The translations under genes were made by a program, and so were the position numbers. Under the pieces are notes generated by a model, which saw nothing but the letters and a program-made list of their open reading frames with translations, was not told where the DNA came from and searched no databases. A stretch of 64,000 nucleotides of DNA from NCBI RefSeq assembly GCF_023055435.1, contig NW_025963879.1:558001-622000 (forward strand), read 5' to 3'. Of this stretch, positions 1,456 through 56,336 are shown piece after piece. Position 1 is the first letter of the stretch. Each line of letters begins with the position of its first letter. This DNA comes from Haliotis rufescens (taxonomy: Eukaryota).

Positions 1456-1669
1456 AATATCGAGCCCATCCACAGTTGTTGTTACCGTTACGGCAGCAGT
1501 CTCCCGAGTAGTCGACGTAGCTGTAGCGGGGCCTGAAGTGTCGCAGTGTAGATTGACTTTCAGCCTTTAAAGCACTTTCATAATTCTCTGTCTGATACTT
1601 AATGGAGAGATATTCGCAACTCACCATCACTGCCAGTGATAGGCAGACTAGTATGGGAAGGCAATTCAT
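1456..1669 (-). CDS. Subfamily A paralog A3, exon 1 only (signal peptide, propeptide, start of Cys/Tyr domain); exons 2-7 would lie beyond the left window edge
   Basis: ATG at 1669 and GTAAGT donor after 1456 (214 nt, phase 1). Near-identical to exon 1 of the complete copies at 14696 and 26741. Positions 1-1455 match intron 1 of those copies. Confidence 0.85.
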
Positions 1670-8138: not shown

Positions 8139-11100
8139 TTATCCGAGCTGGATTTGGTCCCTGCTTGTTGCAAGCACACGAACACTCGCTGCTTCAAGGT
8201 TGTAGAATCCTACAGCAGAACCGGCCGTGCAGTCTCCATTCTCGATCTGCCCAATAACCACCTGTTCTCCAGTCGTTAGGCTGCAAGATATTGGTCCACC
8301 GAAGTCGCCCTGGAAGTAAGGACACAACTAATTATGTATTAACGTTCAATTTTAATCATATTGCATCGCAGAGTTTGTTCGGACCTTTTTATTCAGGTCC
8401 TGGTATTCAGAATTGATTGGAACTTTACCTTTCGTGCCAATGCTTGTTATTGCAATTGAGTTCGTTGAAGCCTACTCTAACGCATTCATGGTCTTCTGGC
8501 ACAGAAGTGAGTGAGCGGGATGTCACCGATGTCACATATGAGGAAAGGTAAACAATAGACACAAATACAAATACACTACGCATTTAAAATAACAAATGAT
8601 CTTCCCAACCGCCCCTCCTCTTCGATGAGAATTAAAGGGTTTTAGGTGTAGAAGGTAGTAACGTTTCGAGATAGAGGCTTCACTATGAAACCATTTCAGC
8701 CTGGAAATAAGGAAACAATATACATACCGCACATGTAGAGCCACTGGGACTGATGAAGCAGTTATATGTGATGGCAGTGTTCGTGAAGTCAAAGACAGCG
8801 GAAGTGTCGGTGGCTGAAAGAAGTGCTTGACACGTGTCGGTTGGCTGCAGACTGGGGATATCCAGGTACTCGAAGGCAGGAGTTGAAGTTCCTGTGATGC
8901 AGAAGAGACGTGCGAGGTTGAGCATATGATATTCCAGGGTAGGTGGGATTGCAGGGTTGGGGAGATGAGATTGTTTAAAACAAATAATCACTTGGGAAAA
9001 TGAAGGGTTGTGGACTTGCAGATAGTTTGGGGCTCTTTCTTCCAGAGGTGAAGCTCTAACTTACGAAATATTTACCCGTGGGGCTAAAACAAGGAATCAG
9101 TATAATGTGCCTTATGAATCCATCTTAAACTGCGGCATTCTATCTCAGAGTGCTAGCACCACAACACTGGCATCAATCCGGACTGGTACAAACAGCCACA
9201 CGCACACGTGCATGCAAGTGAAATAATCTTGAACACGATGTTATACCCCATTTCACTTCACCCCACTGTCTAAAACTCCGAGATGGTATCTTGCATCATT
9301 GACGCCCACTTTTACACATGCGTCACTACGCATCTTCCACTCTTCTGAGATCGCTGCTCACCGGCATTATCAGAGAATCCTGCAGCAGCAACCTTGCAGG
9401 TATCCAGGAGGATGTCGCTTGCCATAGTGCTGGAATAGACACAGGCGATGCCGGGGCAGCTGTTTGACGTCACTGCTGTAGGTAAGGTCACTTCAACAGG
9501 GCCACCTACTCCTCCTGCGGTTGCTGAAATTTCCAAAGGTAAGGATACCTGTACATTGAGTTGATACAATCTGGAAATGCGGAACTACATATTTCTGTCC
9601 ATGGTAAGATAGGTAAGACGTACATTTTTAAACAAAATATTTGTTCCCCTTCTCCTAATTTCTACCTCAACATGTACAAAAGAACGAACCATCATGTATG
9701 TAAATACTCGGGAGATCAACAGCGTACTTGCGATAACTTATGTTCTTTTCATGTGAATAAAATGTGTAAACGAAAACCTAAACACACATCATTGTGAAGT
9801 GACCTGTATCTTACCTGTGATGCCTGTTGCGATAACGGTTCCATCCTGAGCCACAACACTACGAATAGAAAAATATACAGTTGAACTGGCTGCTTTTTCA
9901 GAATGTGTCCGAAACCAGATCAGAGCTGGGTGAAGGAAGGAAACTACCCGTGAGGACAATGTGACATTTTAGTGCTGTCTTTTCGTTGTGAGTGAGTGAG
10001 TTGGTAGTTAGAAGTTGGCTTCAGACATTGTACCCATGTTGGGAATCAAACCCTGTCTTTTAACCAGTAGGCTGTCCCACCATCCAATGGGGCTCGTCGA
10101 ACAAGGGTTCAATTACGACGACGCCTGTGGTGTTTGCATTTCAGTGATACATGTTGCACTTTTGGATTTATACATGTAAAAACACCTGACACATATTTGT
10201 GCTGTGACATACATGATCCTTAACTATAACTATAGGGACGAAATTGTAGAGCTTGAGAGGATCTTTTGGGAAGATCGACAATAACGATAGGTAATCAAGT
10301 ATTTGCAATGCAACATTGTCCATTTTGAAAAGTCCAAAATATTGAATATATATTATTGAACGTTCTATCCCTTTTGACAGCAATATGATCTGCAAGGTTC
10401 AGGAAAATTGTCAAATAAGCGAACCTAGCATGTGAAATGTCGTGCCTGCATCACAAGTGTAAAGTTAGTCGACTCCCCACTGATCTTGGTGCCTTAGGTT
10501 CACTACTTCCTTATCTCTTGGCGCAGATCAGGAGGATGCCACTGTGATTGCCCTTCTGGTTATCTGCGTAATGCTAAATGGTACAATTGAGCGGTATATT
10601 ATTACCAACAATTACACTAATAAAACACTACCTCCTATTAATAATAATATCTTAATAGTAATGAGTATCATATAGCCAGCTTACTCTGCTCCGTTTGCAA
10701 AAGCAGCACAGTTGCTGGGTATAGACAGGGTCGTGCCACTGGTGACGACTCCAGTGCATACAGTTGCTCCACCGATTTGGATGGCCACAAGCCCTGGGAA
10801 CTCATCGCATCCAGCGATAGCAAGGCCGTTCAGTAGCCTCGTGGTGGCGGTTGGGGCGGTTGAGGCCTCAGCTGGACAAACTGAAATTGTACACATAATA
10901 GTCAGTGAGTATGTTCTTGACGCCGCCATCAGCAATATTCCAGCTACACCCTGTCTGTAAATATTCAGGCACAGGAGTGGTTGATCTGATAAGCAGCATA
11001 AACCAGTGACTGAAAGCATGAACATCGATCCATATCATAACGATGGTCCGTAAGCAGCACATTAGGGTTACTGGAAACAATTCTACCCATGAATCTCCAC

Positions 11101-14100
11101 GCTTGTTCTGGTGGTAAATAAATATAGAACAATAAAATGTTTATGAAACTCACATCGTGTTGTGGCTGTTGTTGTTGGAGCTGCAGTAGTAGTTGTGGTA
11201 GTGGTAGTGGTAGTGTTAGTGGGTGCAGCTGTTGTTGTAGTTGGAGCAGCTGTTGTAGTCGTGGGAGCAGCTGTTGTAGTAGTGGTTGTAACAGCAACAG
11301 TTGTTGGAGAACATTGTTGTTCTCCCACACATCCGCAGTATACAACAGAGCTTTGTGGTCTATAATAGTAGCAGCCTCTCCTGGAGTATCGGGATCCATA
11401 GTAGTAGGAAGCATCTGAAACAAACAAGACACGCGATATTCACACACGGGTTTGTCGGCAAAATGTGTGTTTTCTGCGTCGAGGGATACGACGGGACTGA
11501 CAACTGTAAAAACGAATGAGACTGTGTGAGGCAATCTGTTTCTAATCGGGTTATTTTTCACGGAAAGAAAGGTTACAAATAAGCTTCTCAATCAAAGAAT
11601 CACCATCAAAGTCCCGGTTAAGTCATTTCAGAACGTGTATGGTGCATAGCTAAACATTTAAAGCAATTTGCCCCTGGCTTGGCAACATGATGCGCTGTTC
11701 TCTCCCATGCAATGACCTTCACATGGAGTGTTTGAACCACCTAACCCACTGGCTCCATATTGAGAGGGTGCTACCGGTAGATTAGGACACAAAACATGTA
11801 CTTACCATTTTCGCAAACACATGGTATTATTACTGAATTTCCGTGATGCATTCACTAATTTTCCATCACTTATTTGCCTTTTACGCCTTTTTATGATTTG
11901 TTGGTTTGTTGTGTAACGCCGCACTCAGCAATATTCGAGCTATATGACAGCGGTCTATAAATAATCGTGTCTGGACCAGACAATCCAGTGTTTGATATCA
12001 TGAGCATTAATCGACGCATTTCGGATCGATGACATGCATCAACCAAGTCAGCGAGTCTGACCACCCTTTCCCGTTAGTCGCCTCTTACGACAAGCATAGT
12101 CGCATTTTACAGCAAGTATGGGTTGCTGAAGACCTATTCTTCGCCAGATCTTTACGGGTCTTTACGCCCTATGGAATCTGGTTCCGCCGATTATTAAATT
12201 TTCTGGCGTTCACGTTTCTACTATAAAGGCTTCCAAATCTGGAAATATTCAGGACCTCTCGCTGCGTATCACCACCTGAGAAAGTGGCATTTAAGATGGC
12301 GACATCAATAGATCATTCATTCAATAATGCACTTGATTAATATTTATCAGCAAAAAACTTATATATTATGTGTTTGATTATTTCTCTATTTCGGCTAACC
12401 AGGCCTATTCAGTTGTCATTGGCGCATATGCCGTCAATGTATTACGACGTCAAAACCGTCGAGCATGGCAACATGCATGTGTCACAGTTCACAGTACATC
12501 TATTTCGAACAGAAAAAAACTCTTTTATTTACAGTGTCGATATAAGGTCAATTTCGCACATTTGAAGGTGTTATTCCTTTTTTGATTCCTGCTATTTAAT
12601 ATTTGAAATTTCTGGATTACACGGTTGGTTTCCGATCATCGAATACTTAATGCCGAGTACCAAGCAGGGTATCATCATGTATCATATTTTGGTATTACGC
12701 GGTCGGGTATCGAACCACTGACCTTTCGCTCTCTTGAGTGTTCTAGAGTGATACGGGGGCACGGGTGGCCCAGTAACCTAAGGCGCTGCGATTCGCTGTG
12801 CAGAGCTGCGTCCCTTGGGCACGCCAGAAACCTACGATTGTGGGTTTGAATCCCGGTTCGCCCCGATTATGTTTCTAGGTTTGTCAGCACCTACCCGTGT
12901 TCGTAGTCCCTATCATGGGTTTCACAGAAGTGGTAAACGTCTGAGACCTGCATCACGTAGGGCTTTCCTCTCACATTAAGCTGACACGCTGTGATATAAC
13001 TGGAATACTGTTAAAAGCAGCGTTAAACCCAACTCGCTCTAGAGTGATACTAGGATAATTACCAGTCCGTTGTTTTGTTTCACCACAAACTGTTCTTATC
13101 ACTGAGTTAAACTAATTCGTAGTTAAAAGCAATAAACACCTTGCTGAAAGAGTCCATACAATTGCGACTAAACCATGAGCATGTGTTTTATAACCATTAT
13201 CAATTCAATTCAGTTCAATTCAATTCGGGGGCACGGGTGGCCCAGTCGTCTAAGGCGACGTGATTCGCTGTGCAGAGTTGCGTCCCTTAGGCACGCCAGA
13301 AACCTATGATTGTGGGTTCGAATCCCGGTTCGCTCCGATTATGTTTCTAGGTTTGTCAGCACCATACCCGTGCTCGTGGGTTTCACAGAAGTGGTAAACG
13401 TCTGAGACCTGCATCACTTCGGGCTTTCCTCCCACATTAAGCTGACACGCCGCGATATTACTGGAATATTGTTNNNNNNNNNNNNNNNNNNNNNNNNNNN
13501 NNNNNNNNNNNNNNNNNNNNNNNNNNNNNNNNNNNNNNNNNNNNNNNNNNNNNNNNNNNNNNNNNNNNNNNNNNNNNNNNNNNNNNNNNNNNNNNNNNNN
13601 NNNNNNNNNNNNNNNNNNNNTTTCTTTATTAACTCAAACAACCAGCCGGTGATATATGAGCAACAATAATAACAGACATATATACCCCCAATTTTTTTTT
13701 TAGACTAACCAGCCGTGACTCACAGAATCCGGTTGATTAAAAACTACACAAAGATCACACCTGTTTAATAAGCTCTTAATGAACTCCATCCAGTTGTTTC
13801 TATTGTTATTAGTATTATTTATAGAATTTATGTATTTCAATATTAGGGTTGAAAATTTTAGCACAGGTCGATTATTACTTATATGTTTCTGCCAAAACGA
13901 AATCATCCTCTTATATATGATTCTACATATTGGAAATCTCCCAAATTAACCATACATCATATAACCTGGTGTTGAGTTTCTAAGATTGAAGGCAAGTTTA
14001 ATGAATTGTAAATGTACTTTTTCCAATACTGAATGATTTTCGTCTCCTCAAGTTTCACAACCATAGTGAGTGAGTGAGTATGGTTTTACACCGCTTTTAA

Positions 14101-14696
14101 CAATATTCCAGCAATATCACGGCGGGGGACACCAGAAATGGGCTTCACACATTGTACCCATGTCAGGAATCGAACCCGGGTTTTCGGCGTGACGAGCGAA
14201 CGCTTTAACCACTAGGCTACCCGACCGCCCCTTCACAACCATAGGTTAGAATAGGCAAGATTAGAACATCAAAGGCTTTGAGAAGACAATCTACAGGTAA
14301 ATTTAAATTCCGTGCTCTTTTTAATAAAGAGTGATAATACCAAGTGTTCGCGAAAAGAAACTATTGATCTGACATGAGCGTCTGTTTGGGGTGAATAATC
14401 AGTTGGCTTTAGCCGTTACTTTGTTATACAAGATTCATGAATTGTATGTAATAATATATGTATAACCGCACTGATTACTTACAATATCGAGCCCATCCAC
14501 AGTTGTTGTTACCGTTACGGCAGCAGTCTCCCGAGTAGTCGACGTAGCTGTAGCGGGGCCTGAAGTGTCGCAGTGTAGATTGACTTTCAGCCTTTAAAGC
14601 ACTTTCATAATTCTCTGTCTGATACTTCATGGAGAGATATTCGCAACTCACCATCACTGCCAGTGATAGGCAGACTAGTATGGGAAGGCAATTCAT
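8139..14696 (-). CDS. Subfamily A paralog A2: secreted serine-protease homolog (S1 pseudoprotease) with N-terminal Tyr/Cys-rich domain and Thr-rich linker, ~403 aa, 7 exons
   Basis: Exons joined by hand: complement(join(14483..14696,11154..11414,10685..10880,9815..9858,9362..9523,8728..8891,8139..8309)). All introns GT-AG, phases 1,1,2,1,1,0, 1212 nt with no internal stop. Signal peptide MNCLPILVCLSLAVMVSC. S1-like motifs TTR|LLNG, VCTGVV..PSNC, IACVY, STCAGDFGGPISC. Confidence 0.88.
11895..12160 (-). mobile_element. SINE family with central GTCGTAAGAGGCGACTAA motif; other copies ~25508-25778, 32218-32287, 50965-51145, 61392-61570
   Basis: Multiple dispersed copies, an (AACC/AAAC)n tail, and flanking tttacgcc repeats. 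The 3' end resembles the other SINE and LINE tails. Confidence 0.7.
12755..13037 (+). mobile_element. tRNA(Leu-like)-derived SINE with 13-bp TSD
   Basis: TSD tctagagtgatac at 12742-12754 and 13038-13050. The site is empty in paralog A1 (~26207-26219). Confidence 0.85.
13226..13473 (+). mobile_element. Second copy of the tRNA(Leu-like) SINE, inserted in the (ATTCA)n tail of a LINE and running into the N gap
   Basis: Same sequence as 12755-13037; absent from the equivalent position in A3. Confidence 0.8.
13474..13620. other. Assembly gap (147 N) in intron 1 of A2
   Basis: Run of N. Confidence 1.
14067..14231 (-). mobile_element. Short tRNA(Asp-like)-derived SINE with 13-bp TSD; older copies near 9990-10085, 38860-39005, 47830-47960 and 58290-58420
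   Basis: Minus strand reads GGTAGCCTAGTGGTTAAAGCG...GTCACG...GGTTCGATTCC with an (ACTC)n tail. TSD ttcacaaccatag at 14054-14066 and 14232-14244. The site is empty at ~1206 in A3. Confidence 0.85.
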
Positions 14697-21870: not shown

Positions 21871-24800
21871 TTATCCGAGCTGGATTTGGTCCCTGCTTGT
21901 TGCAAGAACACGAACACTCGCTGCTTCAAGGTTGTAGAATCCTACAGCAGAACCGGCCGTGCAGTCACCATTTTCGATCTGCCCAATAACCACCTGTTCT
22001 CCACTCGTTAGGCTGCAAGATATTGGTCCACCGAAGTCGCCCTGGAAGTAACGACAGAACTAATTATGTATTAACGTTGAATTTTTGAGCGTATTGCATC
22101 GCAGAGTTTGTTCGGACCGTTATATTCAGATCCTGGTATTCAGAATTGATTGGAACATTACCTTTCGTGCCAATGCTTGTTATTGCAATTGAGTTCGTAT
22201 AGCCTACTCTAACAAATTCATGGTCTTCTGGCACAGAAGTGTGAGTGAGCGGGATGTCACCGATGTCACATGTGAGGAAACGTCAACAAAAGACACAAAT
22301 ACAAATACACTACGCATTTAAAATAACAAATGATCTACCCAACCGCCCCTCCTCTTCGATGAGAATTAAAGGGTTTTAGGTGTAGAAGGTAGTAACGTTT
22401 CGAGATAGAGGCTTCACTATGAAACCATTCAGCCTGGAAATAAGGGAAACAATATACATACCGCACATGTAGAGCCACTGGGGCTGATGAAGCAGTTATA
22501 TGTGATGGCAGTGTTCGTGAAGTCAAAGACAGCGGAAGTGGGGCTGGCTGAAAGAAGTGCTTGACACGTGTCGGTTGGCTGCAGACTGGGGATATCCAGG
22601 TACTCGAAGGCAGGAGTTGAAGTACCTATGATGCAGAAGAGACGTGCGAGGTTGATCATATGATATTCCAGGTTAGGTGGGATTGTTTAAAACAAATAAT
22701 CACTTGGGAAAATGAAGGGTTGTGACTTCCAGATAGTTTTGGGGCTCTTTCTTCCAGAGGTGAAGCTCTAACTTACGAAATATTTACCCGTGGGGCTAAA
22801 ACAAGGAATCAGTATAATGTGCCTAAGCAATCCATCTTAAACTGCGGCATTCTATCTCAGAGTGCTAGCACCACAACACTGACATAAATCCGGACTAGTA
22901 CAAACAGCCACACGCACACGTGCATGCAAGTGAAATAATCTTGAACACGATGTTATACCCCATTTCACTTCACCCCACTGTCTAAAATTCCGAGATGGTA
23001 TCTTGCATCATTGACTCCCACTTTTACACATGCGTCACTACGCATCTTCCACACTTCTGAGATCGCTGCTCACCGGCATTATCAGAGAATCCTGCAGCAG
23101 CAACCTTGCAGGTATCCAGGAGGATGTCGCTTGCCATAGTGCTGGAATAGACACAGGCGATGCCGGGGCAGCTGTTAGACGTCACTGCTGTAGGTAAGGT
23201 CACTTCAACAGGGCCACCTACTCCTCCTGCGGTTGCTGAAATTTCCAAAGGTAAGGATACCTGTACATTGAGTTGATACAATCTGGAAATGCGGAACTTC
23301 ATATTTCTGTCCATGGTAAGATAGGTAAGACGTACATTTTTAAACAAAATATTTGTTCCCCTTCTCCTAATTTCTACCACAACATGTACAAAAGTACAAA
23401 CCATCATGTATGTAAATACTCGGGAGAGGATAAATTACTTGCGATAAATTATGTTCTTTTCATGTTAATAAAATGTGTTTATACGAAAAACTAAACACAC
23501 ATCATTGTGAAGAGACCTGTCTCTTACCTGTGATGCCTGTTGCGATAACGGTTCCATCCTGAGCCACAACACTACGAATAGAAAAATATACATATGAATT
23601 GGCTGCTTTTTCAGAATGTGCCCGAAACCAGATCAGAGCTGGGTGAACGAAGGAAACTACCCGTGAGGACAATGTGACATTTTAGTGCTGTCTTTTCGTT
23701 GTGAGTGAGTGAGTTGGTGTGTAGCTAGAAGTTGGCTTCAGAGATTGTACCCATGTGGGGAACCAAACCCACCGTCCAATGGGGCTCGTCGAACAAGGGT
23801 ACAATTACGACGACGCCTGTGGTGTTTGCATTTCAATGATACATGTTGTACTATTGGAATTATATACGTAAAACCACCTGACACACATTTGTGCTGTGAC
23901 ATACATGATCCTTAACTATAACTATAGGGACGAAATTGTAGAGCTTGAGAGGATCTTTTGGGAAGATCGACAATAACGATAAGTAAACAAGTAATTTCAA
24001 TGCAACATTGTCCATTTTGATAAATTGTCAAATAAGCGAACCTAGCATGTGAAATGTCGTGCCTGCATCACAAGTGTAAAGTTAGTCGACTCCCAACTGA
24101 TCTTGGTGCCTTAGGTTCACTACTTCCTTATATCTTGGCGCAGATCAGGAAGATGCCACTGTGATTGCCCTTCTGGCAATCTGCGTAATGCTAAATGGTA
24201 CTATTGAGCGGGATATTATTACCAACAATTACACAAATAAAACACTACCTCCTATTAATAATAATATCTTAATAGTAATGAGTATCATATAGCCAGCTTA
24301 CTCTGCTCCGTTTGCAAAAGCAGCACAGTTGCTGGGTATAGACAGGGTCGTGCCACTGGTGACGACTCCAGTGCATACAGTTGCTCCACCGATTTGGATG
24401 GCTACAAGCCCTGGGAACTCATCGCATCCAGCGATAGCAAGGCCGTTCAAAAGCCTCGTGATGGCGGTTGGGGCGGTTGAGGCCTCAGCTGGACAAACTG
24501 AAATTGTACACATAATAGTCAGTGAGTATGTTCTTGACGCCGCCATCAGCAATATTCCAGCTACATCCTGTCTGTAAATATTCGGGCACAGGAGTGGTTG
24601 TTCGATAAGCAACACAAACCAGTGACTGAAAGCATGAACATCGATCCATATCATAACGATGGTCCGTAAGCAGCACATTAGGGTTACTGGAAACAATTCT
24701 ACCAATGAATCTCCACGGTTCTTCTGGTGGTAAATAAATATAGAACAATAAAATGTTTATGAAACTCACATCGTGTTGTGGCTGTTGTTGTTGGAGCTGC

Positions 24801-26741
24801 AGTAGTAGTTGTAGGAGTGGTAAGAGTAGTAGGGGTAGTGGGTGCAGCTGTTGTAGTAGTGGGAGCAGCTGTTGTAGTCGTGGGAGCAGCTGTTGTAGTA
24901 GTGGTTGTAGCGGCAACAGTTGTTGGAGAACATTGTTGTACTCCCACACATCCGCAGTATACAACAGAGCTTTGAGGTCTATAATAGTAGCAGCCTCTCC
25001 TGGAGTACCGGGATCCATAGTAGTAGGAAGCATCTGAAACAAACAAGACACGCGATATTCACACACGGGTTTATCGGCAAAATGTGTGTTTTGTGCGTCG
25101 AGGGATTCGACGGGACTGACAACTGTAAAACGAATGAGACTGTGTGAGGCAATCTGTTTGAATCGGGTTATTTTTCACGGAAAGAAAGATTACAAATAAG
25201 CTTCTCAATCAAAGAATCACCATCAAAGTCCTGGTTAAGTCATTTCAGAACGTGTATGGTGAATAGCTAAACATTTAAAGTAATTTGCCCCTGGCTTGGC
25301 AACATGATGCGCTGTTCTCTCCCATGCAATGACCTTCACATGGAGTGTTTGAACCACCTAACTCACTGGCTCCATATTGAGAGGGTGCTATTGGTAGAAC
25401 AGGACATAAAACATGTGCTAACCATTTTCGCAAACACGTGGTATCATTAATGAATTTCCGTGATGCCTTCACACATTTTCCATCACTTATTTGCCTTTAA
25501 CGCCCTGTGGTTGGTTGGTTGGTTTGTTGTGTAACGCCGAACTCAGCAATATCCGAGCTTTATGACGGCGATCTGTAAATAATCGAGTCTGGACCAGACA
25601 ATCCAGTGTTTGATATCATGAGCATCAATCCACGCATTTGGGATCAATGACATGCATCAACCAAGTCAGCGAGCCTGACCACCCTATCCCGTTAGTCGCC
25701 TCTTACGACAAGCATAGTCGCATTTTACGGCAAGTATGGGTTGCGGAAAACCTATTCTTCGCCAGATCTTTACGGGTCTTTTCGTTGCGTATTACCACTT
25801 GGGAAAATGGCATTTGAGATGGCGACATGAATAGATCATTCATTCAATAATGCACTTGATTAATATTTATCAGCGAAAAAACATATATTATGTGTTTGAT
25901 TACTTCTCTGCTTACGCTAACGAGGTCATTCAGTTGCCATTGACAGATATGCCGTCATGCAAAGTATTACGACGTACGTCAAAACATTCGAGCTTGGCAA
26001 TATGCATGTGTCACAGTTCACAGTACATCTATTTCGGACAGCCATTTTCATTTACAGTGTCGATGAAGCTCATTTTTGCACATTTGAAGGTGTTATTCCG
26101 TTTTTGATACCTGCCATTTAATATTTGAAATTTCTGTATTACGCGGAGTAACAACAAGTATCATATCTTGGTAATCGAACCACAGACCTTTCGCTTTCTT
26201 GAGTGTTCTAGAGTGATACTAGGAGAATTACTAGTCCGTTGCTTTGATTCACCACAAAATGTTCTTGCCACTGAGTTAAACTAATTCGTAATTAACAGCA
26301 ATAAACACCTTCTTGAACGAGTCCATTATACCATTGCGACTGTACCATGAGCATGTGTTCTTTAACCACTATCAAACAGTGATAATATCAAGTGTTCGCG
26401 AAAAGAAACTATTGGCATTGGGGCCTGTTTGGGGTGAAAAAATCAGCATGGCTTTAGCAGTTACCTCGTTATACGAACTTCGGGAATTGTATGTAATAAT
26501 ATATGTATAATTGCACTTATTACTTACAATATCGAGCCCATCCACAGTTGTTGTTACCGTTACGGCAGCAGTCTCCCGAGTAGTCGACGTAGCTGTAGCG
26601 GGGCCTGAAGTGTCGCAGTGTAGCTTGACTTTCAGCCTTCATAGCACTTTCATAATTCTCTGTCTGATACTTCATGGAGAGATATTCGCAACTCACCATC
26701 ACTGCCAGTGATAGGCAGACTAGTATGGGTAGGCAATTCAT
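21871..26741 (-). CDS. Subfamily A paralog A1: secreted S1 pseudoprotease with Tyr/Cys-rich domain and Thr-rich linker, ~404 aa, 7 exons
   Basis: complement(join(26528..26741,24770..25033,24302..24497,23528..23571,23074..23235,22462..22625,21871..22041)). GT-AG introns, 1215 nt in frame. Near-identical to A2, with GDFGGP at the catalytic-Ser motif. Confidence 0.88.
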
Positions 26742-34112: not shown

Positions 34113-36601
34113 CTAGCCAAGAGTAATCTTGGGTTTACCAAGAATAACTCGGGTTGCTTTTCTGCCGGTGCCAAGGACAATCTTATGTTTGTTAAATCTC
34201 CTGAAAGGCTGGTAGCCCAACAGAATAGACCCTTTCCCTCTACGTTCCACTCTGATAGCCGCAGCCTCCAGATTGTAGAAGCCAACGATGTCGGTGCCGT
34301 CGCAGGGCATGTTCTCAGCCTGACCGATGACTACAATTTCTCCGGTGGTAAGGGGACACATGATAGGAGCTCCAGAATCACCCTTAAAAAATACATTAGG
34401 TAAGGTTAGTAAACAAAAGCGATGAGAACCATTTAAATAATCATAAGAGGTGAAATCGGGTTTAACGTTGCACTTATATAGCGACGTGCTTGCACGTGCG
34501 TGTGTGGCTGCTTGTACTAGTCCGGACTAATGCCGATTTTATAGTGCTAGGTCATTGAGATACCATGCCGCATCAATTACACACTTAGACACAGTAAACT
34601 GACCCCAAGCCAACCAGTCCTAAGGCTTGTTTTATCCCCTTAATACCGAGCACCAGGCAGGGTGACAACAAGTACCATCTTGTAACGTATGGTGGTATGA
34701 CGAGACAGGGGATAGAACCCTGGATATGCCGCTCTCAGGGCAGACGCTCTACCACTAGACCTAAGAGGCGATATGAAATCTCTGCTGAAAGTACAGTCCA
34801 TTGTACGATTCAGACTATATCATTAGCATGAATTTATGAATCACTATCAAGTAGTGATGATCACACGTGTTCGTGAAAAGGTGAGCGGCACTCGTTGCAA
34901 ACACGTACATCTGAAAACACACGAGAACATGTCTTCCAGAAAACCTTGGCACACGTGTCAGAACCACAAGGCTACCCCCTTCTTAATGCATTGGGTCCTA
35001 GGTAATGTGAGGAAGTACGTTGTGTTATATATACGTACACCACAGGTAGAAGATCCTGTATTGAAGAAACAGTTGTACGTAAGACCAGTGCCAAAGAGGA
35101 CGGCTTGACCAGACGCCTGCAGGAGGGCGGGACAATCGGCCGTGGGCTGGAGACTTGGCACGGTGTAGAAGGATAATGTTGCGGGGTTCGTGCCTGAAAA
35201 GTAACACATGCTAAAAAATGAATGAATGTGTGCTGCAACCTTGAAAGACTTCTTAAACGAGACCAGATCGAGGAAGTCTTTCGAACTTTTCATGAGAATG
35301 AATATTTTTCTCAATCCCAATTTGTAAAAGCGTGCATTTGAAACATCCGACTAACGCCGTAGGGTCTAATAAAGTTTCCGGGCATCAAATACTCAATAAC
35401 ACCCGCAAATCTAAACACACATAACATTTATCTACTATAAATATCATATTCATTGCCTGAAAAATAAAGTAGCTGAAATAAACGTCGATCAATGTTTACC
35501 GAGGAACACAAAGCAGATTGAAAGAACATAGGAATTAACAGTTTCTTCCTAATTTTGTCATATGCTTTCTAAAGCCTGTATGATATACCTGCAATATCGT
35601 CATGTCCGGCACCGACAACGACGCAGCTTGTGAGGTCAATGTCATCGACCATGGCAGCGTCATAGATGCATGCAACGCCAGGGCAACTCGTGGAGCTGAT
35701 GGGCGTGGACAGAGTGATTGTGAACGGACCTCCTGTTGCGACGGTGGTGGCTAGGAAACGAGGCAAGACATATCGATATAAATATAAGATATTATGCCCA
35801 TTTTAACCCTAGTCCTACCATTTCACTGCGGTAGACATTATAAATGTACCATATAGGGAATCCAACCTTGGTCTTCGTGAGTGAGTGAGTGAGTGAGTGA
35901 GTGAGTTGGGTTTAACGCCGCTTTTAACAGTATTCCAGTTATATCACGGCATGTCAGCTTAATGTGGGAGGAAAGCCCGAAGTGATGCAGGTCTCAGACG
36001 TTTACCACTTCCGTGAAACCCACGAGCACGGGTATGGTGCTGACAAACCTAGAAACATAATCGGGGCGAACCGGGATTCGAACCCACAATCATAGGTTTC
36101 TGGCGTGCCCAAGGGACGCAACTCTGCACAGCGAATTGCGGCGCCTTAGACGACTGAGCCACCCGTGCCTCCCCCCCCCCCCCCCCCCCCCCCCTGGTCT
36201 TCGTCTGACGAGAGAGCGATTTAATCAGTAGCATCGGCTACCCTTCTTTATATTGTAAGTGTTTTTCATATTTCAATCATACCAGAGTAATATATTAACT
36301 TGGCCCCCCTATCGATGAATATATTTTCATTTGTCATTACATACTGTACATTGCATTCAGAGCTATGCATCAAAGTTGTTGTGCTCTCATCTCAATAGAT
36401 CTCTTGATTATGTGTCGCCATTACTTTGTTTCATAAGTTCGTGGATATTCCAGATATTAATGAAGATTTAGTTACTCGAGAAAAGGAAATCGTTCACTTA
36501 CTGTCAATTACAGGTAGAGTTTCAATGACGGTGCCAGTGGTTGGGTCTTGTAGTTCAAGCCTAAAATAGCATCGATATGCATATCAATGTTAAAGAACAT
36601 T

Positions 36602-36654
<53 letters not shown>

Positions 36655-39520
36655 TAAAAAATGATGATGATGATGATGATGATGATATGGAATGTAGATT
36701 ATTGAATTATCAGTGGATGCCCAGCTTTGGCACAAACTACATGATGGTGTAGCTTGATCATTTTATTACCGTCTTCGCCATGCTTGTGGTTTTGACAAAG
36801 AGGTCCACCCTTGTTACGACTCGGAATATGTAGAGGGCGTCATGGAAAATGACAAATACAAATTCTTTGGAATAGGCCCATTTACAGCCTTAGACCAACA
36901 AATCTGATCTTGTTCTTTTTGATAAATCCAATGAGATCATTTATATCATTGAATTTTCTGTCCCCTTTGACACTAATGTGAATGACAAGACTAAGGAAAA
37001 ACATGGCAAATATGCGGACCTCGCTTTCGAAATGTCACGCTTGCATCCCAAGTACCAAGTTGTCCGACTCCCCATTGTGCCTTAGGTTTGGTACCTCCCA
37101 ATCTGTTGACTGACATTGGGAGAGTACCCGGGTTTGCTACCAGGAATACAGCCCTTCTGACGATCTGGGTAATGCAGAAGGCTGCAGTGTTGCGGAGTCT
37201 TCACATTCTCCGAAAAGTTCTGGGTGGGTTTGACTATGCAGCGCTTCCTGGGAGAAGTCCCATTCGCTGTCTGGGCTGCGTGTAGAGGGGGCAAGGGCGC
37301 TGGGCTGATGATGAGCCTAACCAGCCTGACTGTGCCAGAATCACCCAAACCCTCTTTGGTGCATATTTATATCTTAATCTGTACATGGTAATAACTAAAA
37401 CCGATTACACTGTATCTGTGTAAATGTTCATGCGTTTCCAATGTAGTGAAACAGAAATGAATCAGAGAGAAAAATATTCAGTCATTTTGAGAACATCATA
37501 ATGATCTTCAGAGTAACCTCATTATTACTTCCGAGTAGAACGATTGAGAGTAATAACTTTCCGATATTTGCACATGATAACATTTCGTCATCTAAACAAT
37601 AGTTTGACTTGATGTCACAATGAGTAATATACAGAATAACTCAAATCTCGGATTTACGGTAAAGCTACCAGTTGTTATTGAATACAAGTTTCCTCGTACT
37701 TGACGTGGGCCTTACACTATTCCTTCATTCGCTACGCACAATCAGATTCAGATATTAAATCGTTGGTTATTCTCTGAATATTATACATACGCAGTGCCCA
37801 TGAGCTGAGCACAATTGTTGGGTACGGAGACAGTTGTTGTTGAGGTGACGACGCCCGTGCACACAGTATTTCCCGAAGTGGGGTCCACGACCCTGACGAC
37901 GCCGGGGTTGGTGGTGCAGTCTGTCACAGCGGTACCGCCGAGAATCCTGGTAACGGTAGACTGTGTGGTCGCCGTCGTTGGGCAGACTAGAACAGAGTTC
38001 AGAAATGTATTGACCAATATGTAAGTCACTTGCGCATACGACTTCATTCGCACCGAGAAAAAAGTCCATATTTATTGATGCTACAACAGCCTCCTTTGTT
38101 ACCCGAGTAGGGAGAATTTCCGATTATGGAGAGATTGTTTAGGGAGGTTTGTCAAGGGTAAAGTGACATAAGAGATTACTGATATGACCGACAACGGTGC
38201 TGTTTTTTATGTTTTTATTACTGTCTTCTTTAAAATGTTTTTTTGGAACTAGACATCCGTTTGGGGCGAATTTCGGTTTATAAGCGAAGTCAGTAGCATG
38301 GGCAACAAGCCTAAGGCAATTGTAAGGGCTACAACGGATAATATATATGGTTTTAAGATAGTGTCTTAATGTGATACAGGATAAAATAGGCCGATCATAA
38401 TAGAGCACGTTTACTGCACTTACATCGTGTTACAACAGTGGTAGTTGGGGTGGTGGTTGTAGTTGTAGTTACTGTAGTAGTAGCAGTTGTGGTCGTTGCA
38501 GTTGTGGTTGTAGCAGTTGTAGTTGTAGCAGCTGCAGTAGTAGCAGCTGCAGTAGTAGCAGCAGTAGTAGTTGTTGGAGTTGTGGTAGTAGTAGTTGTAG
38601 TAGTAGTAGTAGTAGTAGTGGTCGTAGTAGTAGTGGTGGTCGTTGTTGTGGTCGTGGTGGTTGTTGTAGCTGCTGGTGCAGCTGTTGTTGCTGCTGCAGT
38701 TGCTGGTACGTTGGAACACGAGGATTGGTAGGAGCTGCAGAGGCACTGGATCTTGCATGAATGATACCAGAAGTTACCAGGATAGAAAGGCATCGTGTTG
38801 AAATAGAAGTAGTTGTTTCCTGCAGGGTTAAGAAATATGGTTTCAGTAACTCTTGTAATAAAACATGATTTTACGCCGCTTTTAGCAATATTCCAACAAT
38901 TTCTCGGCATGGGACACCAGGAACATGTTTGACCCATGTAAAGAATATAGCCCAGGTCTTCAGCACGATGAGCGAACGCTTTAACCACTGGGCTACCCAA
39001 CCGCCTATTTTCGGCCGATATCAGTATAAGTCAGTATTAGTTAATATACATAAATCTCCAATTGCTTGTCGTAAGAACCGACTAAAGGAGTGTGAATGAT
39101 CAGGTTTGGTGGCTGGACTGATTGCATATGATCTTGCAATTTATTAGTTTTATTTTAAGTGTGTAGCATTTGTTTTCCCCCGAACATTTATATTAAATAG
39201 TATCGGTTCATAAATGAGTGTGATATTCAAATGTATGTAAATTCAATACTAACATGTCGAAAGCTATTCATCTAATATTCCTTCTTTGAAAAGTACGTGT
39301 AATTCTTACTTGTTCTGCTGTATCTTTTGTAGTAACGGCAGTCGGCGATGTCGTTAGCACAGCATTGACCAGAAGTATCCAGCCAACACGATCTGATGTC
39401 TCTGGTCTTTTTGCTCACGTCAATGGCTCTCAAGAATGTTTGTCTCTTGAAAAATGCATTTCTGTTTGCCGCGTATGTGACGGCTGCAAACGTCGCCAGT
39501 AGAAGGACCAGCTTCAACAT
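34113..39520 (-). CDS. Subfamily B paralog B3: secreted serine-protease homolog with Cys/aromatic domain, long Thr linker and basic C-terminal tail, ~482 aa, 7 exons
   Basis: complement(join(39310..39520,38424..38819,37791..37986,36502..36560,35589..35750,35039..35193,34113..34382)). 1449 nt in frame; the last acceptor is AAG. Signal peptide MLKLVLLLATFAAVTYA. Motifs VTR|ILGG, VCTGVV..PNNC, STCGGDSGAPIMC. Confidence 0.87.
35879..36194 (-). mobile_element. tRNA(Leu-like) SINE with 10-bp TSD, (ACTC)n tail and 5' poly-G run, in intron 4 of B3
   Basis: TSD tggtcttcgt at 35869-35878 and 36195-36204. Absent from intron 4 of B1 and B2. Confidence 0.85.
36603..36686. repeat. Compound microsatellite (AAT)n + (GAT)n
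   Basis: Directly visible in the sequence. Confidence 0.95.
36690..37370 (+). mobile_element. R4/Dong-like (restriction-like endonuclease) non-LTR fragment in intron 3 of B3
   Basis: IISGCPALAQT and DLVLFDKSNEIIYIIEFSVPFD...KEKHGKYADL (RLE domain). Lies next to (TAA)n(GAT)n and is absent from B1 and B2. Confidence 0.65.
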
Positions 39521-42774: not shown

Positions 42775-43345
42775 AACATGAGTAACAGTGGCTTTAAATA
42801 AAACATCACAAAACGTGTCTTTTAATCTAACACTAGTAACAGTTGCTTTAAATCCAACATCACCGAAAGTGGCTTTTAATCTAATACTAGTAACAGTGGC
42901 TTTAAATCCAACATCAACAAAAGTGGCTTTGAATCTAACACTAGTAACAGTGGCTTTAAATCCAACATCACCAAAAGTTGCTTTGAATCTAACACTAGTA
43001 ACAGTGGCTTTAAATCCAACATCAACAAAAGTGGCTTTTAATCTAACACTAGTAACAGAGGTTTTAAATCCAACATCACATTACTTGGCTTTTAATCCAA
43101 CACCGCTAACAGTGTCTTTAAATCCTACATCACAAATAACACTAAAAACACCAGAAATATTGGCTTTAAATCAAACACAAGTAACAGTGGCTTGAAATCC
43201 AACATTAGTAAAGATGTTTTTTAATCCAACACAAGTGACAGTGGCTTTAAATCCAACACATGTGACAGCGGCTTTAAATCCAACACAAGTGATAGTGGCC
43301 GTAAATCCAACATGAGTAAAGGTGGCTTAAATTCCAACATCAACT
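42775..43345. repeat. 27-bp minisatellite (GTGGCTTTAAATCCAACATCACCAAAA / GTGGCTTTTAATCTAACACTAGTAACA variants)
   Basis: About 20 tandem 27-bp units, partly alternating to give a 54-bp higher-order repeat. Confidence 0.9.
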
Positions 43346-44202: not shown

Positions 44203-47200
44203 CTAGCCAAGAGTAATCTTGGGTTTACCAAGAATAACTCGGGTTGCTTTTCTGCCGGTGCCAAGGACAATCTTATGTTTGTTAAATCTCCTGAACGGCT
44301 GGTAGCCCAACAGAATAGACCCTTTCCCTCTACGTTCCACTCTGATAGCCGCAGCCTCCAGATTGTAGAAGCCAACGATGTCGGTGCCGTCGCAGGGCAT
44401 GTTCTCAGCCTGACCGATGACGACAATTTCTCCGGTGGTAAGGGGACACATCACAGGGGCTCCAGCATCACCCTGAATAATACATTACGTAAGGTTAGCA
44501 TATAAAAGCGATGAGAAATATTTGAAATAATCACATTAAATCTCTGCTGAAAGTCCATTGTACTAGAATATCCATAGCATGTGTTTATGAATCACTATCA
44601 GATGGTGATGGTTTCAGGGGTTCGTGAAAAGTATGCTGCCCCACCGGTGGCACTCGTTACAAACTAATACAAAGACACGTCAATATTTATCTTAAAACAC
44701 ACGGGAAAGTATGATACAAGTTTATATATGGAATTGCATTGGACAAAATGTTGGTCGCTGGTCAAATTTGGCATGTCTTTTACACAGGTATCAGTAACAC
44801 AAGGCTTTCTGCTGCAATCATGCATTGGATGTTAGTTAATGTGAGGAAGTGCGTTGTGTTATATGTACGTACACCACAGGTAGAAGATCCTGTATTGAAG
44901 AAACAGTTGTACGTAAGACCAGTGTCAAAGAGGACGGCTTGACCAGACGCCTGCAGGAGGGCGGGACAATCGGCGGTGGGCTGGAGACTTGGCACGGTGT
45001 AGGAGGATAATGTTGCGGGGTTCGTGCCTGAAAAGAAACACATACTGAAAATTGAATAAAATGTGAAACATTGCTAACTGGGTTCGAATCCCGGACTTCA
45101 AACATCCTATGAATTCTTTTCTTGATCAGTATGTTATTTTTCTCAATCCCCTTTTGTAAAAATGTGCCAGCCTACTCAATGGTGGAAATCTTAACATTTG
45201 AAAATTCGACTAACGCCCTCGGGTCTAAATGAAATTTCCGGTCATCAAATACCCTATAACACCCGCAAATCAGAAAACACGTCACATTTATTTACTGATT
45301 AGCATATCCATTGCGTGACAGCTGAACTAGCTTAAGTTAACATCGATGGACGGGGTATAAAGTTAACCGAGGAAAACAAATCAGATTGAAAGATCATAGG
45401 CATTAACAGTTTCTTCCTAATTTTGTCAAAATCCTTTCTTAAACCAGTATTATGTACCTGCAAAATCGTCATGTCCAGCACCAACAACGACGCAGCTTGT
45501 GAGGTCAATGTTGTCGACCATGGCAGCGTCATAGATGCATGCAACGCCAGGGCAACTCGTGGAGCTGATAGGTGTGGTCAGAGTGATTTCGAACGGACCT
45601 CCTGTTGCGAGGGTGGTGGCTAGGAAATGGGACAATACATATGAATGCAAAACTAATGTAAATATAGAGTAAGCAAGGTTTAATGCCCAGTTTATCCCTA
45701 TTCTAGCCATATCAGTGCGGGAGGCATTGTACCGATGAGATACACCCTATCTTGGTATTTGATATGACGAGAGAGAGAGAGAGAGAGAGAGCGATTTAAT
45801 CAGTAGGCTGCCCTTCCAATTGATATTGTACTTGGTAGTTATTCTACCAGGGAAGTATATTTTCTTAATCTTATCACGAAATTGATGAATTATATTTTCG
45901 TTTGTCATTACATATTGTTGTCCTTTCTTTGAGAGCTACGCTTCAAAGTACCTGCACTGTCGTCTAAATCGATCCCTTGGTCATAGGTGTTAATTTTTGG
46001 GTCGGTGTTATTTTTCGTAAGTTCATGGATATTCCAGATATTAATGAAGATTTAGTTACTCGAGCAAAGGAAATAGTTCACTTACTGTCAATAACAGGTA
46101 GAGTTTCAATGACGGTGCCAGTGGTTGGGTCTTGTAGTTCAAGCCTAAAATTAAATCGATATGCATACCAATGTTAAAGAATATTTATCGCGGGGTCACT
46201 TTCTTCTTTGATTTGTTTATTCAAACCTCATTATTTTACCAACAATGAAATAATAATGGTAACTAAAAACGGTAACGCTGTATCTGTGAAAATATGTAGT
46301 GAAAAAGTACGAATGTATTAGAGAGAAAAATATTAAGTCATTATGAAAATATCAGAATGTACTTCAGAGAAAGCCTATTATTACTTCCGGGTAGAAGGAA
46401 TGAGAGTAATAACTTTCCGATATTGCACATTATGTAGCGTCATGAGATCACACATTGATAATATTACGTCATCTTAACAATAGTTTGACTTGAAGTCACA
46501 ATGAGTAATATACAGAATAACTCAAATCTCGGATTTACGATTTAGCTACGAGCTGTGATTGAATATAAGTTTCCTCGTACTTGACGTGAGCCTTACACCA
46601 TGCCTTCATTCGCTACGAACAATCAGACTCAACATTGGAATCGTTGGTTATTCTCTGAATACATACGCAGTGCCCATGAGCTGAGCGCAGTTGTTGGGTA
46701 CGGAGACAGTTGTTGTTGAGGTGACGACACCCGTGCACACAGTACTTCCCGAAGCGGGGTCCACGACCCTGACGACGCCGGGGTTGGTGGTGCAGTCTGT
46801 CACAGCGGTACCGCCGAGAATCCTGGTAACGGTAGACTGTGTGGTCGCCGTCGTTGGGCAGACTAGAATAGAGTTCAGAAATGTATTGACCAATATGTAA
46901 GTCACTTGCGCATACGACTTCATTCGCACCGAAAACAAAATACCAGTTTACTTTGAGCGCTAGATACTGAACTTATAAAGGTTATTACTGTCTCCTTTAA
47001 AAAATTGTCACCCGTTTCCGGTTAAGGAGGTGTCGGTTTAGAGAGGTTTGCCAAAGGAGCAAAAGACATGTCTGCTTCGACAGACAACAGCTGTGCGGGT
47101 TTTTTTTATTATAGCTATCTTCTATACCATTTTTGGTTGACATAACACCCGTTTAGGGTGAATATTGGTTTATAGAGAGGTCATTTTAGCGAGCATTGCA

Positions 47201-48744
47201 AAGGGCAATAAGGTAATCATCGTGTGATGCATACTTTGGGCACAATGCAATTACAAGGGCTACGTCGGATTATAAATTTGGTGTAAAGATGACGGTCAAG
47301 ATAGTATCGTTTTATTGTGAATGGATGATTTTAATAAGAATTGCTGAAGGTCCTATTTTAACAATGTGCGTTCGACAATGCCATGTTATTAACCATACTT
47401 TTTTAAATTTTATGATACAGCAATCGCAGTTAAATCCACTTACATCGTGTTACTACAGTAGTAGTCGGAGTGGTGGTTGTAGTTGTAGTCACTGTAGTGG
47501 TAGCAGTGGTCGTTGTCGCAGTTGTAGTTGTCGCAGTTGTAGTTGTAGCAGCCGTAGTAGTAGCAGTTGTTGTCGTAGCAGCTGTGGTAGTTGTTGCGGT
47601 AGTAGTGGTAGTCGTTGTGGTTGTTGTAGTTGCTGGTGCAGCTGTTGTTGCTGCTGCAGTTGCTGGTACGTTGGAACACGAGGATTGGTAGGAGCTACAG
47701 AGGCACTGGATCTTGCATGAAGAATACCAGAAGTTACCAGGATAGAAAGGCATCGTGTTGAAATAGAAGTAGTTGTTTCCTGCAGAGTAAAAGAATAATG
47801 TTTTCAATGGCGACGTTGGGTTCTTGTGAGTGAATATGATTTTATGCCAATAGTCCAACAATATCACGACTCGATACACCACAAATGGACTAGCCCATGT
47901 GAGAAATCGGACCCGGGTCTTCGGCCTGCCATCCGTACGCTTTAACAACTGGGCTTCCCATCGTCTCTTTCTGGTCGTTTCATAAGGGGATTGTAGTGTT
48001 ACAAAACAGACAGGCTACATACATGTATATACGGACAGCCGGTGCTCTACGTACATAGGGTTCGCTATAACAACGACCGGTAAACGTTTGTACCAAAGTC
48101 CTGTGTATCAATAAATCACTGTTTTCATCTTGCAATTTATTAGTTTTATTTAAATATGCAACAGTTGTTTCCCCCAAACATTCAAAGATAAAAGTATTGG
48201 TTTTTAACTGAGTGCTATATTCGGATGGTCTTGTCAAATTTCCTTTCATGCTCTTTATTAAATGTCAAATGGTTGCTTAACCGAACATTTCCAATTGGTT
48301 CAAATGAAAAGCACTTAAAACCTGTAAAAACATAACTATTTAAATTCAGTACTGAAATGTCGAGAACTATTTGTTTCATAATATTTGTATGTAGACAAAA
48401 ACCCACTGGTTCTGCTGTATCTGTTGTTGTTATGGCAGTCGGCGCAAAATAGCAAACGTATGTAAATTCAATAGTAACATGTCGAAAACATTTATCCAAT
48501 ATTACTTAAATGAAGTGTACATGTAATTCTTACTTGTTCTGCTGTATCTTTTGTAGTAACGGCAGTCGGCGATGTTGTTAGCACAGCATTGTCCCGAAGT
48601 ATCCAGCCAACACGATCTGATGTCTCTGGTCATTTTGCTCACGTCAGTGGCTCTCAAGAATGTTTGTCTCTTGAAAAATGCATTTCTGTTGGCCGCGTAT
48701 GTGACGACTGCAAACGTCGCCAGGAGAAGGACCAGCTTCAACAT
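44203..48744 (-). CDS. Subfamily B paralog B2: secreted S1 pseudoprotease, ~462 aa, 7 exons
   Basis: complement(join(48534..48744,47444..47779,46667..46862,46086..46144,45458..45619,44873..45027,44203..44472)). 1389 nt in frame, GT-AG introns. Motifs R|ILGG and STCGGDAGAPVMC. Confidence 0.88.
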
Positions 48745-54732: not shown

Positions 54733-56305
54733 CTAGCCAAGAGTAATCTTGGGTTTACCAAGAATAACTCGGGTTGCTTTTCTGCCGGTGCCAAGGACAA
54801 TTTTATGTTTGTTAATTCTCCTGAACGGCTGGTAGCCCAACAGAATAGACCCTTTCCCTCTACGTTCCACTCTGACAGCCGCAGCCTCCAGATTGTAGAA
54901 GCCAACGATGTCGGTGCCGTCGCAGGGCATGTTCTCAGCCTGACCGATGACGACAATTTCTCCGGTGGTAAGGGGACACATCACAGGCGCTCCAGCATCA
55001 CCCTGAATAATACATTACGTAAGGTTAGTATATAAAAGCGATGAGAAACATTTGAAATAATCACACGAAGTTTTTGCTGAAAGTCCATTGTACTATTATA
55101 TCCATAGCATGTGTTTATGAATCACTATCAGGTGGTGATGGTACCAGGTGTTCGTGAAAAGGTGAAAGTATGCCGCCCCACCGGTGGCACTCGTTACAAA
55201 CTAATACAAAGACACGTCAATATTTATCTTAAAACACACGGGAAAGTATAATACAAGTGAATATGAGGAATTGCATTGGACAAAATGTTGGTCGCTGGTC
55301 AAATTTGGCATGTCTTTTACACAGGTATCAGTAACACAAGGCTTTCTGCTGCAATCATGCATTGGATGTAAGGTAATGTGAGGAAGTGCGTTGTGTTATA
55401 TATACGTACACCACAGGTAGAAGATCCTGTATTGAAGAAACAGTTGTACGTAAGGCCAGTGTCAAAGAGGACGGCTTGACCAGACGCCTGCAGGAGGGCG
55501 GGACAATCGGCAGTGGGCTGGAGACTTGGCACGGTGTAGGAGGATAATGTTGCGGGGTTCGTGCCTGAAAAGAAACACATACTGAAAATTGAATTAATGT
55601 GAAACATTGCTAACTGGGTTCGAATCCCGGACTTTTAACATCCTATGAATTCTTTTCTTGATCAGTATGGTGATTTTATCAATCCACATTTGTAAAAATG
55701 TGCCAGTCTACTCAATGGTGGAAATCTTAACATTTGAAAATTCGACTAACGCCCTCGGGTCTAAATGAAATTTCCGGTCATCAAATACCCTAAAACACCC
55801 GCAAATCAGAAAACACGTCACATTTATTTACTGATTTATCATATCCATTGCGTGACAGCTGAACTAGGTGAAGTTAACATCGATGGACGGGGTATAAAGT
55901 TAACCGAGGAAAACAAATCAGATTGAAAGATCATAGGCATTAACAGTTTCTTCCTAATTTTGTCAAAATCCTTTCTTAAACCAGTATTATGTACCTGCAA
56001 AATCGTCATGTCCAGCACCAACAACGACGCAGCTTGTGAGGTCAATGTTGTCGACCATGGCAGCGTCATAGATGCATGCAACGCCAGGGCAACTCGTGGA
56101 GCTGATAGGTGTGGTCAGAGTGATTTCGAACGGACCTCCTGTTGCGAGGGTAGTGGCTAGGAAATGGGACAATACATATGAATGCAAAACTAATGTAAAT
56201 ACAGAGTAAGCAAGGTTTAATGCCCAGTTTATCCCTATTCTAGCCATATCAGTGCGGGAGGCATTGTACCGATGAGTTACACCCTATCTTGGTATTTGAT
56301 GTGAC

Positions 56306-56336
<31 letters not shown>

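Follow-up and report, generated by a model that had tools for sequence, protein, structure and literature searches.

Positions 11154-14696 of the window, the 64,000-nucleotide stretch of the Haliotis rufescens genome analysed here (contig NW_025963879.1; G000:C101:558001-622000), hold exons 1 and 2 of a minus-strand gene, A2, and a small cysteine-rich head domain is split across both exons. The predicted head sits at the N-terminus of proteins from a gastropod family of trypsin pseudo-proteases with Thr stalks, and Pfam does not recognise it. The reading that we prefer, at slightly less than an even chance, is that the head serves as the disulfide-stapled binding or linking tip of a small predicted secreted mucin in mucus or another extracellular coat.

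Gene models were built from the window and its flanks. They describe eight tandem seven-exon genes in the order C, A1, A2, A3, B1, B2, B3, D, with open frames of 403-509 amino acids, GT..AG introns and the intron phases 1, 1, 2, 1, 1, 0 in common. Each gene encodes, in this order, a signal peptide (assigned by inspection alone), a propeptide, the Cys head, a Thr stalk and a trypsin-fold (S1) domain. The first exon of A2 (14483..14696, minus strand, as are all parts of this gene) carries a hydrophobic signal-like start (about residues 1-17, by inspection), the propeptide, the sequence RHFRPR (14570-14553) and the first half of the head with the motif DxSGxCC-x6-C (14552-14483). Intron 1 (11415..14482, phase 1, GT..AG), which includes a stretch of N at 13474-13620, interrupts the head inside its Tyr/Arg loop. 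The 5' part of exon 2 (11311..11414) supplies the second half of the head, consisting of the Tyr-rich loop and C-x11-CxC-x5-C, while the 3' part (11154..11310) encodes a Thr/Pro/Ala stalk of 51 amino acids, 63% of them Thr, with Arg as its last residue.

This layout was compared with the contig sets of four public runs aligned to A2 and four aligned to B1; the RNA status of these runs is the tool's guess and none is recorded as RNA. The joint between A2 exons 1 and 2 (14483 to 11414) is present in three of the four runs (X1, X2 and X3, from two studies), and exon 1 is covered by contig pieces 14483-14717 (X1) and 14483-14627 (X3). The joint between exons 2 and 3 (10880-11154) is also found in three of four, and the remaining four joints in all four runs, one of them (exon 6) reported with a shift of 2 nucleotides. 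The earlier note on this DNA had named transcripts in which exon 1 ends at its read-through stop as the case that would overturn its proposal; because the contigs join 14483 to 11414, this is not what they show. The exon 1-2 junction and the head exons of B1 are covered in none of the four runs, which is no evidence of silence; a single X8 contig spans exons 5 and 7. For B, the junction of exons 1 and 2 is based on splice signals, phase and the stored model P0001.

The composition that had been described for the two heads is correct: in the A head of A2, the 58 residues that follow RHFRPR include 7 Cys and 13 Tyr, and the B head of B1 has 8 Cys and 14 aromatic residues. The B sequence quoted at the time corresponds to window 39391-38716 and thus lies outside the interval 11154..14696 given with it. 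The proposed frame DxSGxCC-x6-C ... CxC-x5/6-C is found in all eight array genes, with Cys spacings of 0,6,19,11,1,5 in A and 7,0,6,30,3,1,6 in B. The suggested RxxR-type site stands in part: it is clean in B and D, where RDIR or RDLR directly precedes the head, non-canonical in A, where RHFR is followed by Pro-Arg, and absent before the C head. The odd number of Cys is a trait of a lineage: the A and C heads have 7, the B and D heads 8; since A lies next to C in the tree described below, the seven-Cys state maps to one branch. A1-A3 have an extra Cys at residue 18, where P0003 has Ser, and this Cys therefore does not generally even the Cys count.

The share of Tyr in the head is 21-22% in A, 13% in B and D and 6% in C, and 13 Tyr in 58 residues has a binomial probability of about 1e-8 at 3% Tyr. 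Such a loop would suit a structural protein, anchored to chitin and cross-linked through 3,4-dihydroxyphenylalanine (DOPA) or dityrosine, in an organic layer that hardens (periostracum, radula, operculum, egg or larval coat), and Tyr runs also occur before or inside the heads of the relatives P0015, P0055 and P0009. However, only the A heads are rich in Tyr, so that a general DOPA role loses weight, and the Phe found instead in C suits stacking over catechol chemistry. No Pfam chitin-binding family is matched by exons, whole proteins or heads, and six family motifs have no real match in 24 of the 27 supplementary files that accompany the H. laevigata shell proteome. We regard a hardened-layer protein as quite unlikely.

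All heads are basic, with a net charge of +3 to +9 overall (+3 to +5 in A-C) and a pI of 8.5-9.4. In all eight genes an Arg stands directly before the aromatic-Cys-Pro linker to the S1 domain (window 11154-11160 and equivalents), which may be a second site of cleavage and would then release head and stalk together. A head, or head and stalk, released as an antimicrobial or membrane-active peptide would be in keeping with this Arg just before the linker Cys, with the cationic, aromatic character of the head and with the long Tyr/Arg hairpin of a low-confidence B model. No basic site is present between head and stalk in A or B, however, the charge in A-C is small, and the head matched no defensin-type or other peptide family, and we consider release as a peptide very unlikely.

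The similarity between heads of different types was compared with 2000 shuffles and was matched or beaten by 2 for A/B, by none for A/C and by 34 for A/D. Head and S1 domain diverge differently between types. The B and D heads are 74-76% identical, against 48-49% for their S1 domains, and nonsynonymous distances (dN) are 0.13-0.15 in the head and 0.42-0.44 in the S1 domain. The A and B heads are 29% identical, against 51% for the S1 domains. Among the recent copies (A-A and B-B) the head dN is 0-0.03. These values bear on the view that the dead S1 domain carries the function, as a substrate trap, receptor ligand or inhibitor decoy, and that the head is an exchangeable oligomerisation cap with no specific binding. 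The heads differ in pattern or are missing across the family and the S1 Cys are nearly invariant, in line with such a cap, but the B and D heads are better conserved than the S1 domains behind them; this view appears highly improbable.

The head had been put forward as a small Cys-rich domain with a Tyr/Arg-rich insert that belongs to no recognised family, and the searches agree: no significant Pfam or PDB match was obtained. No Pfam family came near its cut-off for 12 single exons, 2 whole proteins and 9 head rows (heads to E 10), nor was there an fn1, VWC or pacifastin match for the heads, the filters being such that weak matches are dropped. No confident Pfam match to the head, the finding that would have spoken against its novelty, was seen. 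The DOPA or dityrosine cross-linking, chitin binding and membrane activity that the earlier note suggested gained no support, and the note left aside the setting that accounts best for the head: a Thr-stalked protein with a catalytically dead trypsin fold, encoded in a cluster with predicted giant mucins. The best PDB sequence match of the head profile is the FnI module of factor XII (4bdw), with an E value of 0.077 that is not significant and covers the second half only; the FnI-like stretch reads aromatic-x-x-G-x-x-aromatic ... CxC-x6-C. The disulfide pairing of FnI modules is known, and if the FnI core is real, it would pair C1-C7 and C6-C8 in B and leave C2-C5 to pin the loop. Under the same pairing C7 would be free in A and C, both of which lack C1.

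An AlphaFold model of the B head from a nine-row alignment is of low confidence (pLDDT 64, pTM 0.45) and shows the Tyr/Arg loop as a long hairpin and no FnI sheet. Structure searches with this model gave no clear match (Foldseek best E 1.1, VIA-align best Z 3.3), and with a model of such low confidence they cannot show a new fold; nor do they lend support to the disulfide-knotted topology put forward in the earlier note or to an inhibitor cystine knot of three threaded disulfides. The single-sequence fold of A2 is unusable (pLDDT 38), and an Atlas search with the B head returned no usable match, which shows neither absence nor novelty. The AlphaFold model of the head retrieved none of the FnI, VWC and pacifastin folds.

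Behind the stalk, A2 exon 3 (10685..10880) encodes the linker Cys, the activation site R↓LLNG, Cys42 and an Asn at the His57 position. Exon 4 (9815..9858) adds 44 nucleotides of the S1 domain, with its joints seen in four of four runs. Exon 5 (9362..9523) holds Gly at the Asp102 position, CPGIAC with Cys122, and Cys136, and exon 6 (8728..8891) holds Cys168, Cys182 and Cys191. Exon 7 (8139..8309) encodes GDFGG, in which Asp194 is kept and Phe occupies the Ser195 position, followed by Cys201, Cys220 and the stop. Pfam reports no S1 domain in P0001 or P0002 (Trypsin is reported in 9 of the 31 aligned family members). P0002 alone matches prostasin at E 0.003, Atlas places the C-terminal domain with PF00089 trypsin clusters at 0.97, and a 31-sequence family profile matches chymotrypsinogen at E 1e-20. 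The residues at positions 57/102/195 are N/G/F in A2, N/G/A in B3, N/G/S in B1 and D and N/G/T in C. All three triad residues are therefore gone in A, B2, B3 and C, while B1 and D keep Ser195 only, and the TAAHC, DIAL and GDSGG motifs of an active S1 protease are not present as a triad. The S1 part has 12 Cys in all array genes and is acidic (net -3 to -15).

The zymogen elements (R↓I/L/M/V, Asp194, the linker Cys and Cys122) are kept in all five abalone types aligned. Among 31 family rows without the His motif, Arg or Lys is found at P1 in 25, I/L/M/V at position 16 in 29, Asp194 in 30, Cys201 and Cys220 in 31 and the linker Cys in 22 (the other 9 being gaps), while Ser195 is found in 2. At least 14 Thr within a 30-residue window occur in 21 of the 31. 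Two extra S1 Cys near positions 25 and 117 (exons 3 and 5), which likely form an additional disulfide, are present in 30 and 29 of the 31 rows and in 7 of 13 His-bearing rows. In S1 proteases cleavage creates an N-terminus at position 16 whose salt bridge to Asp194 reshapes the domain, and the linker Cys bonds to Cys122; by this bond the two chains would stay joined after cleavage. We infer from the kept elements that the activation switch still operates in the dead S1 domain.

By the definition of serine protease homologs (SPHs) as S1 domains lacking one or more triad residues, given in an excerpt of PMC1761132, the predicted array proteins are members of the SPH class. The same excerpt describes the arrangement of clip-domain SPHs as a Cys domain, a linker Cys and an S1 homolog, which the array proteins share. 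They could thus be immune recognition proteins or cascade cofactors, in which a variable head reads microbial surfaces while the dead S1 domain, once cleaved, serves as the scaffold for an active protease or phenoloxidase. The kept activation switch, the tandem expansion with fast divergence of heads between types, the basic aromatic heads and the presence of 2b9l (prophenoloxidase activating factor) among the PDB matches at E 1e-16, though below chymotrypsinogen and kallikrein, all speak for it. Against it, the head is no clip domain. The clip pattern needs six Cys with Cys5 and Cys6 adjacent and five residues between Cys2 and Cys3; the heads have 7-8 Cys with the adjacent pair at the start and CxC-x5/6-C at the end, and the A and B spacings do not fit the five-residue gap. 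Moreover, the low dN between recent copies shows no diversification, and the closest neighbours in the cluster are giant mucins. We consider an immune role fairly unlikely.

These neighbours came to light in 464 kb of the contig around the array. More S1-like exons lie on either side of the array, and none of the first S1 exons read among them has the His motif. Two giant mucin-like genes on the minus strand to the left (G000:C101:505796-530238 and 456457-492536; loci L004-L007, L018-L021 and L038), predicted from DNA, each contain a single open frame, of 2668 and 3041 codons, of (TTSA)n repeats with about 50% Thr and 25% Ser. Upstream of these frames lie repeated Cys modules; the S1 exon downstream lacks the His motif, has an activation site of the form R↓L/M and is reached by phase-1 donor and acceptor sites that fit in frame. 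An intron of the second gene contains a 53-bp tandem array (G000:C101:459057-462176). The giant genes are the strongest hint of a role of the array proteins in mucus. To the right of the array lie at least eight more S1-like genes on both strands (G000:C101:644926-798670; loci L012-L017, L022, L023 and L048-L055). The first exons read in this region are without His57 (for example TTAAC, TTRIC, TSAVC and TTASC), and it therefore looks like a large pseudo-protease cluster.

The family extends beyond abalones. A profile of four full-length proteins was run against 1.84 billion representatives and gave 211 matches at E <=0.001, many from the stalk alone. Twenty S1-bearing matches were looked up among the best 150 of the 211; 19 of these carry gastropod names (Haliotis, Patella, Littorina, Babylonia, Nucella, Aplysia through a cluster member, Elysia, Biomphalaria, Physella, Bradybaena and Candidula) and one is without a taxon name. 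A tree was built from 44 rows, namely 26 stored His-less proteins, 5 of our own models and 13 His-bearing sequences, after removal of fragments and stalk-only matches by hand; it is midpoint-rooted and several rows are near copies. The His-bearing rows split off at 99/92, and nine abalone array rows group together at 100/100, with A beside C (99/96) and B beside D (87/54). As rows were sorted by the His motif, the count of 0 of 31 with His is partly by construction.

The relatives carry other Cys heads or none. Eight of them (P0015, P0025, P0030, P0037, P0052, P0055, P0098 and P0158) have heads with 8-9 Cys at the same position that end in CxC-x5-C (x10 in P0052), and some of these heads are rich in Tyr. 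When they were scored against the abalone heads with hidden Markov models, 10-273 of 300 Cys-fixed shuffles did as well, and hhalign gives 0.3%; shared ancestry of the abalone head with the heads of other snails is possible. A word-based homolog search with exon 1 found the two abalone types only, among 5869 candidates, which is weak evidence for restriction. Searches of the H. rufescens genome with one head half and exon 7 returned the array only, plus one weak S1 exon on contig C35. The exon on C35 (L032:1500-1600), a terminal S1 exon, is a near match to H. asinina P0023 ('integumentary mucin C.1-like') and represents a family member outside the cluster.

In our preferred reading, that of a small mucin with a binding or linking tip, a convertase would remove the propeptide (through RxxR in B and D, doubtfully in A, with no such site in C) and O-glycosylation would turn the stalk into a rod. 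The head would form three to four disulfides that pin both ends of a Tyr/Phe/Arg loop of 19-40 residues. Partners of this loop may be polyanionic glycans, surfaces or the S1 domain of a neighbouring molecule, which is acidic where the head is basic, and the spare Cys of A and C may link chains. On cleavage at R↓I/L, the dead S1 domain would take on its mature form but stay tethered by the linker disulfide, and would thereby become a binding module that does not cut. The mucin-like layout itself, a Thr/Ser/Pro-rich centre between Cys-rich domains with predicted secretion, is present, with stalks of 51-141 amino acids and 60-81% Thr across the array.

Several points weigh against this reading. 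The splicing of the giant TTSA exons to S1 exons is a prediction from DNA. With 51-96 residues, the stalks of A-C are shorter than would be expected of a gel former. At least five family members (P0016, P0017, P0018, P0112 and P0050) show neither head nor stalk, and neither is therefore needed for the core role of the family. Between A and B the head dN is about 1.0 against 0.48 for the S1 domain, which fits recognition of a ligand or pathogen as well as a structural role. Between B and D the synonymous distance is also lower in the head (pS 0.50 against 0.78), and conversion or exon exchange may thus explain part of its conservation. Finally, the family motifs are missing from the supplements of four proteome studies, one on limpet pedal mucus, two on land-snail mucus and one on abalone shell; these supplements are incomplete and in part without sequences. 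These searches covered 24 of 27 files of PMC6003135, 2 of PMC7333891, 3 of 4 of PMC10475054 and part of one archive of PMC11940790 (annotations, not sequences); PMC6003135, where long cells were partly covered, gave two chance motif matches to unrelated sequences.

The remaining array genes in the window are also on the minus strand. Exon 1 of A1 lies at 1456..1669, its other exons being left of the window (to G000:C101 position 553758), and A3 (21871..26741) is a complete seven-exon gene with an open frame of 404 amino acids whose letters are identical to P0004. The B genes are complete as well: B1 (34113..39520, 482 amino acids) has GDSGA and is without His57 or Asp102, its 8-Cys head lying at 39391-39310 and 38819-38716; B2 (44203..48744) and B3 (54733..59187) each encode 462 amino acids, and B3 is orthologue-like to P0001. 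The B genes end in a basic C-terminal tail of 33 residues with a repeated hydrophobic-hydrophobic-Leu-Gly unit (54733-54835, 44203-44305 and 34113-34215) that A, C and D lack. B2 and B3 are followed downstream by a degenerate tandem repeat of 27/54 bp in which both strands have open frames (42691-43350 and 53394-53985). Retrotransposon-like frames, partly duplicated with the A units, lie between gene copies (5433-6176, 17935-19901 and 30589-31296); by eye we take them to resemble endonuclease, RNase H and zinc-knuckle sequences.

These genes are hidden behind names of the 'DAN4-like' kind, since their domains are missed by Pfam and by the annotation alike. The stored protein P0002 (XP_046333475.2, 'cell wall protein DAN4-like [Haliotis rufescens]') is identical to the A2 model. 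P0001 (B type) and P0003 (A type) are proteins of H. cracherodii, the entries XP_071086317.1 and XP_071086331.1 being named 'mucin-22-like'. These names mirror the Thr stalk only and leave head and S1 domain unannotated. A description of the family was not found in the literature (subscription journals lying outside the scope), and six accessions or locus identifiers led to no papers. Two leads were set aside. Has-vm1 was dropped on its description, which in the available part of PMC2034539 gives few predicted glycosylation sites and no similarity to known proteins. A contig named 'DAN4-like [Biomphalaria]' that is up in the albumen gland, a reproductive organ, of Cernuella (E 5e-12) was not used, as its match may rest on the Thr stalk alone.

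The array proteins can be compared with several known systems. With MEROPS S1A/PF00089 Trypsin members (chymotrypsinogen, kallikrein, prostasin) they share the fold-level match, the activation motif, Asp194 and at least six conserved Cys, but alone they fall below any Pfam report, have no triad and do not keep Trp141 or Asp189. With accessory-domain SPHs (arthropod clip SPHs, masquerade, Scarface and 2b9l) they share a signal, a Cys-rich N-terminal domain, a low-complexity linker, the linker Cys and an S1 domain without the full triad. They differ from these in lacking a clip domain, in the gastropod origin of 19 of the 20 relatives looked up and in belonging to a family that includes predicted giant mucins. 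SPHs such as masquerade and Scarface act on cell-matrix structure, as described in an excerpt of PMC4338370, and the array proteins may be likened to an accessory-domain SPH of the masquerade type combined with a small mucin.

Mollusc mucins are built from a Cys-rich head, a Ser/Thr-rich centre and a Cys-rich tail, and for the invertebrate A-B-A mucins and Cornu CAMPs the N-terminal part has been proposed as a gel tie and the C-terminal part is globular, according to the portion of PMC10475054 available. The array proteins likewise have Cys-rich ends around a Thr-rich centre, but their C-terminal domain is a predicted dead trypsin fold, not a lectin, fibrinogen, VWA, VWD or cystine-knot domain, and no sequence link was found. 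P0001 and P0002 have no Pfam match to VWD or cystine-knot domains, the giant neighbours lying outside that scan. Gel-forming mucins are defined by VWD and C-terminal cystine-knot domains.

At the protein level, snail mucus and coats still lack a good explanation. The analysis yields a defined family, a profile that finds it and a genomic cluster that ties small forms to predicted giant mucins; it amounts to a sound annotation with a putative function. In a wider and fairly unlikely picture, the family would be an undescribed gastropod mucin class of 400 to >3000 residues, with a dead trypsin assembly end switched by proteolysis and a swappable disulfide-stapled head. The abalone head would then be a new small domain, possibly with an FnI-like core and an inserted Tyr/Arg loop, linking chains by its spare Cys and basic loop. 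If true, a mucin that ends in a pseudo-protease module would put a very well studied fold to a new use.

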